Positions 1,452 to 4,545 of a stretch of DNA of 5,181 bases are shown piece by piece (position 1 is the first letter of the stretch; every line of letters begins with the position of its first letter). This stretch comes from a virus (lineage: Duplodnaviria > Heunggongvirae > Uroviricota > Caudoviricetes). The position numbers and the translations under genes are program-made. The notes below the pieces were generated by a model. That model did not search any database and had not been told where the DNA came from. It saw nothing but the letters and a program-made list of their open reading frames with translations. Location: IMG/VR virus record IMGVR_UViG_2778261227_000008. The stretch is one strand, 5' to 3'.

Positions 1452-1823
1452 ATGCAAAAAAAAGAAATTCGCCGTTTACGTCTCAAGGAGTGGTTTAAAG
1501 ATAAAACTCTGCCACCCAAAGAGAAGAGCTACCTATCTCAACTAATGAGTGGGAGAGCCTCGTTTGGAGAAAAGGCTGCCAGAAGAATAGAGCAAACATA
1601 CGGGATGCCGGAAGGGTATCTGGATGCGGAATACGCAGAACAACCGGAGGTTTCTCCACCACATGCAGGGTTAACGTCTAATCAACTGGAATTATTGCAG
1701 ATTTTTTCAGCCTTCCCTGAGGATGAGCAACGCCAGATAATCAGCGAGTTAAAGCAGAAAAAAGAATCAATGGAAGACCTCATAGCGAGATGGATTGCGG
1801 CGCAAAAATGCCGCCGCGCCTGA
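1452..1823 (+). CDS. paaR2: HTH transcriptional regulator of a three-component toxin-antitoxin operon, 123 aa; occupies the prophage repressor position
   Basis: ATG at 1452, in frame within track ORF 1389..1823; the GTG at 1389 has no SD. XRE-like segment EKSYLSQLMSGRASFGEKAARRIEQTYGMPEGYL. It is divergent from the Cro-like gene and followed by an antitoxin-toxin pair. Identified as paaR2 from memory of the E. coli O157:H7 paaR2-paaA2-parE2 system; paralogue number not verifiable here. Confidence 0.65.
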   Translation: MQKKEIRRLRLKEWFKDKTLPPKEKSYLSQLMSGRASFGEKAARRIEQTYGMPEGYLDAEYAEQPEVSPPHAGLTSNQLELLQIFSAFPEDEQRQIISELKQKKESMEDLIARWIAAQKCRRA

Positions 1824-1843
1824 GTTATAAAACCGGAGGAAAC

Positions 1844-2035
1844 ATGAATAGAGCCCTTTCACCAATGGTTTCTGAGTTTGAAACCATTGAACAAGAAAAC
1901 AGTTACAACGAATGGCTGCGTGCGAAAGTAGCAACGAGCCTTGCAGATCCGCGCCCAGCAATTCCTCATGACGAAGTTGAGCGCAGAATGGCAGAACGCT
2001 TTGCTAAAATGCGCAAGGAACGGAGCAAGCAGTAA
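1844..2035 (+). CDS. paaA2: Small antitoxin, 63 aa (PaaA2-like)
   Basis: ATG at 1844 with SD GGAGGA at 1835-1840, in frame within track ORF 1790..2035. Product is MNRALSPMVSEFETIEQENSYNEWLRAKVATSLADPRPAIPHDEVERRMAERFAKMRKERSKQ. Its stop is 1 nt before the toxin start. Size and position fit the antitoxin of the ParE2 system, as recalled. Confidence 0.7.
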   Translation: MNRALSPMVSEFETIEQENSYNEWLRAKVATSLADPRPAIPHDEVERRMAERFAKMRKERSKQ

Positions 2036-2036
2036 A

Positions 2037-2315
2037 ATGTTACCCGTATTATGGCTTGAAAGCGCAGATACCGACTTGGATGATATAACTGGTTATATTG
2101 CTCGTTTCGACATAGATGCGGCAGAACGCTTATGGCAGCGATTAAGGGGTTGTGTGCTGCCGTTATCCGAACACCCGTATTTATACCCACCAAGCGACAG
2201 GGTGCCTGGCTTGCGTGAGATTGTGGCCCACCCTAACTATATAATTCTATACCGCGTAACAACATCAAGCGTTGAAGTAGTAAACGTGATCCACGCAAGA
2301 CGCCAGTTTCCCTAA
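2037..2315 (+). CDS. parE2: RelE/ParE-superfamily toxin, 92 aa (ParE2-like)
   Basis: ATG at 2037, in frame within track ORF 1941..2315. C-terminal pattern YIILYRVTTSSVEVVNVIHARRQFP is typical of ParE/RelE folds. Tightly coupled to the upstream antitoxin. Confidence 0.7.
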   Translation: MLPVLWLESADTDLDDITGYIARFDIDAAERLWQRLRGCVLPLSEHPYLYPPSDRVPGLREIVAHPNYIILYRVTTSSVEVVNVIHARRQFP

Positions 2316-3820: not shown

Positions 3821-4119
3821 ATGATTTCCTTGGATCGTTGGGGATATCCAGATTATACAGATTTCTTGTCGTTGGGGAATGACAGGAACCACCTCGCCTG
3901 ACGTGGTTAAAAGCAGGCACACAACACGAAAGCGCACGGCGAAGTCATTTCTCCCTCTGTTGCGTGTCGCCGGTATCTTCGACCGTGCGCTTCCGGTTGT
4001 GGCACTCCGCGAAATGGCGCGGCGGTAAGTATGGCGGGGTTATCCTTACCCCCACTGGTAGCACCGGGTTGTCAGGTTGACCATACGCCTGAGTGACAAC
4101 CCCGCTACAACACTCCATG

Positions 4120-4176
4120 TTGATTTGTACCTTTGGCGGCATCAGTTTCATTGCTGGCTGATGTCCCCCCTTTTTA
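4120..4176 (+). ncRNA. dicF: DicF-like small RNA with terminator-like 3' hairpin and U-tract
   Basis: Sits directly upstream of dicB as in the Qin dicB operon. Segment TTTGGCGGCATCAGTTT matches my recollection of E. coli K-12 DicF (TTTGGCGGTATCAGTTT). Stem CATCAG/CTGATG extended by G-C pairs and followed by CCCCCCTTTTT (4165-4175). 5' boundary is estimated; the 5' portion differs from K-12 as I recall it. Confidence 0.5.
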
Positions 4177-4178
4177 AA

Positions 4179-4340
4179 GTGAATTTTGTGATGCGGTGAA
4201 TGCGGCTGAGCGCACGCGGAACAGTTAAAAAGCGATTAGTTCCCCCGTATCGGGTGTTTATGGGTTTCCCTGTATCCGGCGTTAATTGTTAACTGGTTAA
4301 CGTCACCTGGAGGCACCAGGCACCGCATCACAAAATTCAT
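4179..4340 (+). other. 20-bp long-range inverted repeat bracketing the dicB leader
   Basis: GTGAATTTTGTGATGCGGTG at 4179-4198 is the reverse complement of caccgcatcacaaaattcat at 4321-4340 (19 of 20, the last pair G-U in RNA). The 3' arm ends 4 nt before the dicB SD (GAGGA 4345-4349). Confidence 0.6.
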
Positions 4341-4356
4341 TGTTGAGGACGCGATA

Positions 4357-4545
4357 ATGGAAACGTTATTACCAAACGTTAATACGTCTGAAGGTTGTTT
4401 TGAAATTGGTGTCAGAATCAGTAACCCTGTATTTACTGAAGATGCCATTAATAAGAGAAAACACGAACGGGAGTTATTAAATCAAATTTGCATTCTTTCT
4501 ATGCTGGCCCGTTTACGTCCGACTCAAAAAGGATACTGGCAATGA
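4357..4545 (+). CDS. dicB: DicB cell-division inhibitor, 62 aa
   Basis: Hand translation gives METLLPNVNTSEGCFEIGVRISNPVFTEDAINKRKHERELLNQICILSMLARLRPTQKGYWQ, recognised as DicB. SD GAGGA 7 nt upstream. Confidence 0.9.
   Translation: METLLPNVNTSEGCFEIGVRISNPVFTEDAINKRKHERELLNQICILSMLARLRPTQKGYWQ

Follow-up and report, generated by a model that had tools for sequence, protein, structure and literature searches.

RNase III Processing and Prophage RNAs

In ribosomal RNA operons, the sequences flanking the 16S and 23S precursors pair over a long range. RNase III cuts both strands of these stems, excising the enclosed RNA from a polycistronic transcript. Another kind of site is found in the intercistronic regions of T7 early RNA and in the N-leader and sib of lambda, where the host enzyme recognises structured signals between genes and its cuts alter the stability or translation of neighbouring cistrons.

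DicF and DicB, both encoded by prophages, inhibit division of the host cell. In E. coli K-12, cutting of the transcript by RNase III between dicF and dicB has been on record since 1990 (Faubladier, Cam and Bouché, as cited in PMC5069750 and PMC9438474) and, according to these secondary sources, the 3' end of a 72-nt form of DicF depends on this enzyme. Likewise, a review lists the dicA-dicF-dicB intergenic regions as RNase III substrates (PMC2777011). A longer DicF species of 190 nt is also RNase III-dependent in K-12; the paper describing it names RNase III only for the 5' end of that species and does not mention a downstream site (PMC10448788).

STnc100 RNAs are known as multi-copy RNAs of prophages (PMC5331693, PMC12370729, Zhu/Shabalina/Storz 2026 preprint). 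Canonical copies stand alone, end in a terminator and often form tandem arrays beside tRNA genes. Arrays of three to five canonical units occupy ORF-free stretches of the viral contigs L014 (2265-3380), L079 (4349-5513) and L025 (342-1038). Those of L014 and L025 adjoin phage tRNA genes, and that of L079 contains an isrI match.

The Prophage Region

The window, meaning the whole stretch of 5,181 nucleotides that was analysed, comes from a virus of the Caudoviricetes (IMG/VR record IMGVR_UViG_2778261227_000008). It is the immunity and early-left region of a lambdoid (Qin/Rac-like) prophage. The minus strand carries YdaT- and YdaS/Cro-like genes. Pfam matches also identify a PaaA2-ParE toxin-antitoxin pair, DUF1391 (ydfA-like), DicB and DUF1482 (ydfD-like). 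Over the length queried, the segment 4100-4560 shares 99.8% identity with a prophage of E. coli NS-NP030; with the dicF-dicB segment of K-12 Qin, the identity is about 85-89%.

Two features lie further upstream in the window. Ten copies of GTCGTGAC (at most one mismatch) form two clusters on the plus strand, at 101-149 and 371-430, where 2.75 copies would be expected and none of 200 shuffles reaches ten. The clusters fall at the end of a gene annotated as 'DNA-binding protein' in the near-identical NS-NP030 prophage, and they look like the iterons of a replication origin inside an O-like gene. At 1452-2312 (+), the PaaA2 (70.7 bits) and ParE (59.6 bits) pair follows a 123-aa ORF that has no Pfam match. 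The module sits between the Cro/YdaS-like and ydfA-like genes, and together with the 123-aa ORF it presumably resembles the three-gene paaR2-paaA2-parE2 arrangement of O157 prophages.

At 4122-4175 (+) lies a divergent copy of the DicF small RNA, including an intrinsic terminator that consists of a stem at 4138-4165 and a U-tract at 4171-4175. The Rfam DicF model (RF00039) matches 4122-4170 with 30.3 bits, which is below the cut-off of 48, compared with 76.7 bits for DicF of K-12. Alignment with K-12 dicF shows that the position, the terminator and the UUUGGCGG motif are conserved. Relative to K-12, the DicF of the window is missing about 8 nt in its 5' region, and its terminator loop differs.

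Folding places a long irregular hairpin at 3917-4003 (+), with dicF about 120 nt downstream. RNase III probably cuts this hairpin to generate the 5' end of a DicF precursor of about 190 nt, because counting 190 nt back from the DicF terminator (about 4175) leads to about 3985, in the 3' strand of the hairpin. Upstream of it, at 3886-3925 (+), lies the motif CCACC(N)GCCTGA(N)GTGG-TAAAAG-CAGGCA. The same motif is found directly upstream of STnc100-like elements that have no dicF (L188, L195, L057 and L216). The motif folds into a small CCAC/GUGG hairpin and could be a candidate nut- or boxB-like site.

The dicB gene follows at 4346-4545 (+), with the Shine-Dalgarno sequence (SD) GAGGA at 4346-4350, the ATG at 4357 and the stop codon at 4543-4545. 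It matches Pfam DicB with 123 bits. A small hairpin, 4352-4369, forms around its start codon.

A Long-Range Helix between dicF and dicB

The spacer between dicF and dicB is bounded by an inverted repeat. Repeat search finds perfect arms at 4180-4198 (TGAATTTTGTGATGCGGTG) and 4321-4339 (CACCGCATCACAAAATTCA), which are 19 nt long, 100% complementary and separated by 122 nt. In RNA, the addition of a G4179:U4340 wobble and an A4178-U4341 pair gives a helix, P1, of 21 bp, formed by 4178-4198 and 4321-4341 on the plus strand. Its 21 contiguous pairs (20 Watson-Crick and one G:U) have a duplex energy of -33.1 kcal/mol. This length falls in the range of the intramolecular substrates that E. coli RNase III cuts on both strands, in which the RNA is double-stranded over about 20-22 bp with hardly an interruption. 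P1 starts 3 nt past the U-tract of the DicF terminator and ends 15 nt before the ATG of dicB.

The sequence-only reading of the window had described a near-perfect 20-bp inverted repeat whose 3' arm ends 4 nt before the dicB SD. The repeat is real, with 19 perfect pairs and a 20th (G4179/T4340) that becomes G:U in RNA, and the spacing is as described, since the arm ends at 4341 and GAGGA begins at 4346. A chance origin can be ruled out. In 200 dinucleotide-preserving shuffles of the window, with loops of up to 400 nt allowed, perfect inverted repeats usually reached 10-11 nt at most, and none was longer than 16 nt, compared with the 19 nt observed. Folding of 4170-4360, which had been proposed as a check, gives a lowest-energy structure that is closed by P1. 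Its energy of -74.7 kcal/mol corresponds to z = -5.5 and is equalled by none of 200 shuffles.

A Divergent STnc100 Fold

The RNA enclosed by P1 has a structure of its own. The full length of the Rfam STnc100 model (RF02076) aligns to 4168-4389 with 37.0 bits (E = 1.6e-5), under the gathering cut-off of 47, and in this match the inverted repeat is the closing helix. The copies of K-12, P7 and a Shigella phage are likewise unreported at the STnc100 cut-off.

For comparison, loci carrying the P5 motif were collected from viral contigs, and 55 non-redundant copies, the window included, were aligned. They share a common fold, which consists of P1 (…GGUG/CACC…), an AAU junction, P2 with the loop CUNNGCG, a variable P3, P4, and P5 (CCNGG-AGGCA-CCNGG). 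The window has the core fold of STnc100: the GGUG/CACC closing helix, the GGUGAAU junction, P2, and P5 with its AGGCA loop. After the 5' arm of P1, the AAU junction and the P2 hairpin (GCGGC UGAGC GCACGC, its loop bearing the conserved motif CUNNGCG) occupy 4199-4217. Next comes P3 at 4218-4277, a variable region in which the alignments show lineage-specific insertions and deletions. The P4 hairpin follows at 4278-4304, and P5 (CCUGG-AGGCA-CCAGG) at 4306-4320 directly abuts the 3' strand of P1.

Palindromes in the enclosed region had been noticed beforehand, namely GTTAAC twice and CCTGG/CCAGG. They are present, at 4288-4293 and 4296-4301 for GTTAAC and with CCTGG at 4306-4310 pairing with CCAGG at 4316-4320. 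They are not, however, the loose features they were taken for, being parts of the P4 hairpin, which contains both copies of GTTAAC, and of P5 in a conserved STnc100-like fold.

Covariation in P1, P2 and P5 is supported by RNAalifold and by a count of pairs on the specified structure. Across the 55 members, pairs of P1 vary between UA, CG and UG and between GC, AU and GU. The middle pair of P5 covaries as well, being GC in 48 sequences and UA in the other 7. None of 500 shuffles reaches the observed covariation score, and registers slid from the specified one score lower. The core motifs GGUGAAU, the P2 loop and the AGGCA loop are near-invariant even at loci in which another gene has taken the downstream place; for P5, the loop is invariant as sampled, since the retrieval pattern itself fixed the P5 motif. 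The family-wide part of P1 comprises only its inner 7-8 bp, and pairing at the outer 13 positions is limited to a minority of the 55 members. In the window, the inner 7-10 nt of the 5' arm (…GCGGUG) belong to the family-wide part and the outer 11-13 nt are specific to a subfamily. The element of the window is a divergent relative of STnc100, whose covarying closing helix corresponds to the inner 7-10 bp of P1.

The likeness to STnc100 and PasD sRNAs extends over GGUG/CACC, GGUGAAU, the CUNNGCG loop of P2, P4, and a P5 that abuts the 3' strand. In contrast to canonical copies, which stand alone, the element of the window scores 37 bits (<47), has another P2 stem sequence and a closing helix of 21 bp, and is part of an operon, where an ORF follows it directly. 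It also has no terminator of its own: a terminator scan found none after the 3' arm of P1, and the 3' hairpin of the STnc100 model aligns to the start region of dicB. Recognition of the dicF-dicB spacer as a divergent STnc100-family fold below the Rfam cut-off appears to be modestly new.

Several other interpretations of the enclosed RNA were considered and rejected. A tRNA-like fold is suggested by the 7-bp P1 stacked on the 5-bp P5, which resembles an acceptor/T-arm minihelix, and by the location of canonical copies near tRNA genes. It is opposed by the 5-nt loop, by a 3' end that has nothing like CCA or a discriminator, and by the lack of any overlapping Rfam tRNA match. Loop-loop pairing between P2 and P5 gives no consistent kissing interaction, as the P2 loop motif varies (UGC or AGC). 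PasD is not a variant of the dicB type; it is located in the late region near Q and lpxR. Finally, a 30-codon ORF inside the repeat (4200-4292) is probably not coding. The core lengths, 97-123 nt among relatives, differ by non-multiples of three, its ATG falls within the conserved GGUGAAUGCGG motif, and no usable SD was seen for it.

The Extended Helix among Relatives

A subfamily with a long P1 was collected by scanning with the dicB-type variant of P2 and by a scan of bacterial genomes. In relatives that share this P2 variant, P1 has 18-24 bp. The long helix is found in all copies that follow a DicF-like terminator, where the downstream gene is dicB, kil, or an ORF of 94 or 282 aa. At other loci of the subfamily, the downstream ORF has 107 aa or more. 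In other phages, the DicF-like RNAs ahead of the long-P1 element comprise at least four variants, whose target ranges may differ.

The arms of the long helix change in sequence and continue to pair. In L063, P1 carries compensatory changes from U-A to C-G and from A-U to G-C. L188, L127, L195, L219 from Klebsiella and L222 from Raoultella have unrelated outer arms that still pair, with energies of -30 to -40 kcal/mol. Variants of P1 also use G:U wobbles, which pair only in the plus-strand RNA. The outer 11-13 bp of P1 are therefore an extension specific to one subfamily and kept by compensatory changes, a pattern in the aligned sequences which argues that the extension is under selection. A second point that appears to be modestly new is that, in one subfamily, a longer closing helix has become an RNase III site.

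Long P1 helices are present also at loci that have no DicF upstream. Therefore, defining the 3' end of DicF is not the sole reason for the extension.

The dicB-type core is not restricted to lambdoid phages. Phage P7 (L001, 72453-72568), a P1-like phage, carries a copy upstream of terB. In this copy and in that of phage D6, the dicB-type core has a short P1 and belongs to the ban operon, with tRNA genes on one side and terB on the other. As P1-like plasmid prophages thus have the core too, the element moves between lambdoid and P1-like phages.

Sequences close to the E. coli dicF spacer (82-84% identity) were also found in Aeromonas phage AP1 (H61) and Actinobacillus phage vB_Apl-pPE4 (H62), and near-E. 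coli spacer sequence likewise occurs in L228 and L231, from Veillonella and Collinsella MAGs. Its occurrence under such unrelated hosts is most simply explained by contamination or mis-binning.

Correspondence with RNA Ends in K-12

The helix of the window has an orthologue in K-12, where 1649442-1649462 pairs with 1649573-1649593 (NC_000913.3) over 21 bp. The arms are identical at 40 of 42 positions. The two differences turn pairs into G:U and U:G, which hold only in the RNA of the plus strand. The two elements share their operon position and their distances to the terminator and to the dicB ATG. Compared with K-12, the window has a divergent DicF (30 bits), a variable region that is 12 nt longer, and a stronger helix, with 20 Watson-Crick pairs instead of 18. 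RNase III processing of the dicF-dicB spacer is already known in K-12, and the window carries the orthologous element, so that the repeat already has an explanation.

Published RNA ends in K-12 fall at the centre of this helix. The 72-nt DicF end was placed by means of the annotated DicF coordinates, with its length taken from secondary sources. Adding 19 nt to the 53-nt DicF (1649382-1649434) leads to 1649453, which is nucleotide 12 of the 21-nt 5' arm. On the other side, Term-seq data from two growth conditions place a 3' end at 1649584, which is 25 nt upstream of dicB (PMC7815308, supplementary file 3). In the same work this end has a Rho score of 0.95, which does not mark a region of Rho termination, and an intrinsic terminator score of 1.2, where the threshold is 3 (PMC7815308). 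It is nucleotide 12 of the 3' arm and a putative RNase III end.

The two ends, with the DicF length as secondary sources give it, thus lie opposite each other in the middle of the helix, with about 9-10 bp on either side. They are staggered by 3 nt, or by 2 nt if DicF is 71 nt long. The canonical offset of RNase III cuts leaves 2-nt 3' overhangs. In a 2-nt model, the pairs between the cuts would be G4188-C4331 and U4187-A4332 (G2453-C2584 and U2452-A2585 in K-12). They contain the G-C pair expected from the in vivo rule for RNase III, by which one or both of the paired positions between the cuts are G-C (Altuvia et al. 2018, PMC6212723).

Further evidence comes from RNA-seq of an rnc deletion, in which a position inside the core, 1649470, has 26 reads compared with 0 and 0 in the wild-type replicates (Gordon 2017, PMC5371410, Table S1); this site rests on those 26 reads, and the method merges sites up to 400 bp apart, which means that the RNase III site already known upstream could account for it.

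The earlier proposal that the long duplex is a plausible RNase III substrate setting the 3' end of DicF is supported, and what it describes was already established. The 72-nt end, as given in secondary sources, maps to the middle of the 5' arm, and the Term-seq end faces it across the 3' arm, as would be expected of an alternative 3' end of DicF made by RNase III.

Alternative Explanations

One alternative is a translational gate, in which the intact helix keeps the ribosome from dicB, and cleavage by RNase III or opening of the helix switches translation on. The 3' arm of P1 ends only 4 nt ahead of the SD, and the lowest-energy fold adds seven weak pairs between the terminator U-tract and UUGAGGA. 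Opening a 30S footprint of 4337-4372, which overlaps the arm by 5 nt, costs about 17 kcal/mol with the helix, compared with 9-10 kcal/mol without it. However, the SD (4346-4350) and the AUG (4357) are outside the helix, which ends at 4341, so the leader is not of the kind that sequesters its SD. The helix makes no difference to the cost of opening the stretch from SD to AUG, which is 7.8-8.4 kcal/mol in its presence and 7.3-8.7 kcal/mol in its absence, because the local hairpin 4352-4369 already holds the AUG. The weak pairs between U-tract and SD compete with the terminator hairpin, and related loci vary both in the distance from the helix to the next start codon (7-40 nt) and in the gene that follows. 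Gating of dicB translation, which the sequence-only reading had also proposed, is not supported by these energies, and this alternative is considered unlikely.

Another alternative is that P1 is a structural closing stem only. The helix would serve to fold the STnc100-like core and to insulate it from the flanking message, and cleavage by RNase III would be incidental or unimportant. This describes the inner 7-10 bp well, as they close all members of the family, including stand-alone copies with only 6-10 bp, and it agrees with core motifs that stay near-invariant when the downstream gene is replaced. It does not explain why P1 has 21 bp, which exceeds the need of folding if 6-10 bp suffice in stand-alone copies. 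Nor does it account for the maintenance of the extra 11-13 bp by compensatory change in several lineages, or for published RNA ends at the centre of the helix. As an explanation of the whole helix, it is slightly less probable still than the gate.

An element that acts in DNA, such as a protein binding site, a recombination site or a cruciform, might be suspected, since the inverted repeat is long and the prophage region is a mosaic that exchanges modules, but it can be dismissed, as neither a cruciform nor a dimeric operator is favoured by a spacer of 122 nt, both arms are inside a covarying RNA fold, and the strand-specific G:U wobbles by which variants pair are A:C mismatches on the other strand.

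A Model for Processing of the dicBF Transcript

The preferred reading, held with a probability of about 0.8, is that P1 in the read-through dicBF transcript is an RNase III site, of which the inner part is an ancestral STnc100-type closing helix and the outer part an extension. The helix, its conservation, its covariation and its coincidence with published K-12 ends are observed; the exact cut sites in the window, the fate of the excised core and the effect on dicB expression are predicted.

The process would start with read-through of the DicF terminator, after which the two arms could pair into P1 in the plus-strand dicBF transcript. RNase III would then bind this helix of roughly two turns and cut both strands centrally. 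The cuts are predicted after 4188/4189 and after 4332, positions transferred from the 72-nt DicF end of K-12 for the 5' arm and from the Term-seq end 1649584 for the 3' arm.

Three products would result. The first would be a DicF extended by about 18-19 nt, corresponding to the 72-nt form of K-12. The second would be the folded core of about 143 nt, which keeps a closing helix of 9-10 bp, a helix size that stand-alone STnc100 copies have as well. The third would be a dicB-ydfD message with a leader of 24 nt. In evolutionary terms, an ancestral STnc100-type closing helix would have become an RNase III site in one subfamily through the addition of the outer 11-13 bp.

Such processing would resemble that of the rRNA operons, compared with which the enclosed RNA is here only about 122-143 nt and a putative stable product. 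The sites of T7 and lambda differ more, as they are local hairpins with internal loops, whereas P1 is a perfect long-range helix that closes a domain of several hairpins.

A bolder version of the model may be put forward tentatively. The spacer could be a third product of dicBF, an STnc100-family RNA of about 130-143 nt excised by RNase III with 9-10 bp of P1, as in stand-alone STnc100 small RNAs. A DicF-like sRNA and an STnc100-like RNA would then form a mobile module of two RNAs, which lambdoid phages put ahead of various small, often toxic genes (dicB, kil and others). This version is considered less likely than not.

Significance for Prophage Biology

Cutting of the operon RNA decides the amounts of DicF and DicB. 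If the assignment of the hairpin at 3917-4003 holds, dicF is bracketed by two RNase III helices. To the processing already described in K-12, the present analysis adds the assignment of the cut to a specific 21-bp long-range helix, across which two independent published RNA ends face each other. It also ties the spacer to STnc100, a widespread and functionally unexplained family of prophage RNAs, and offers a concrete route by which RNase III could release an STnc100-type RNA from an operon.
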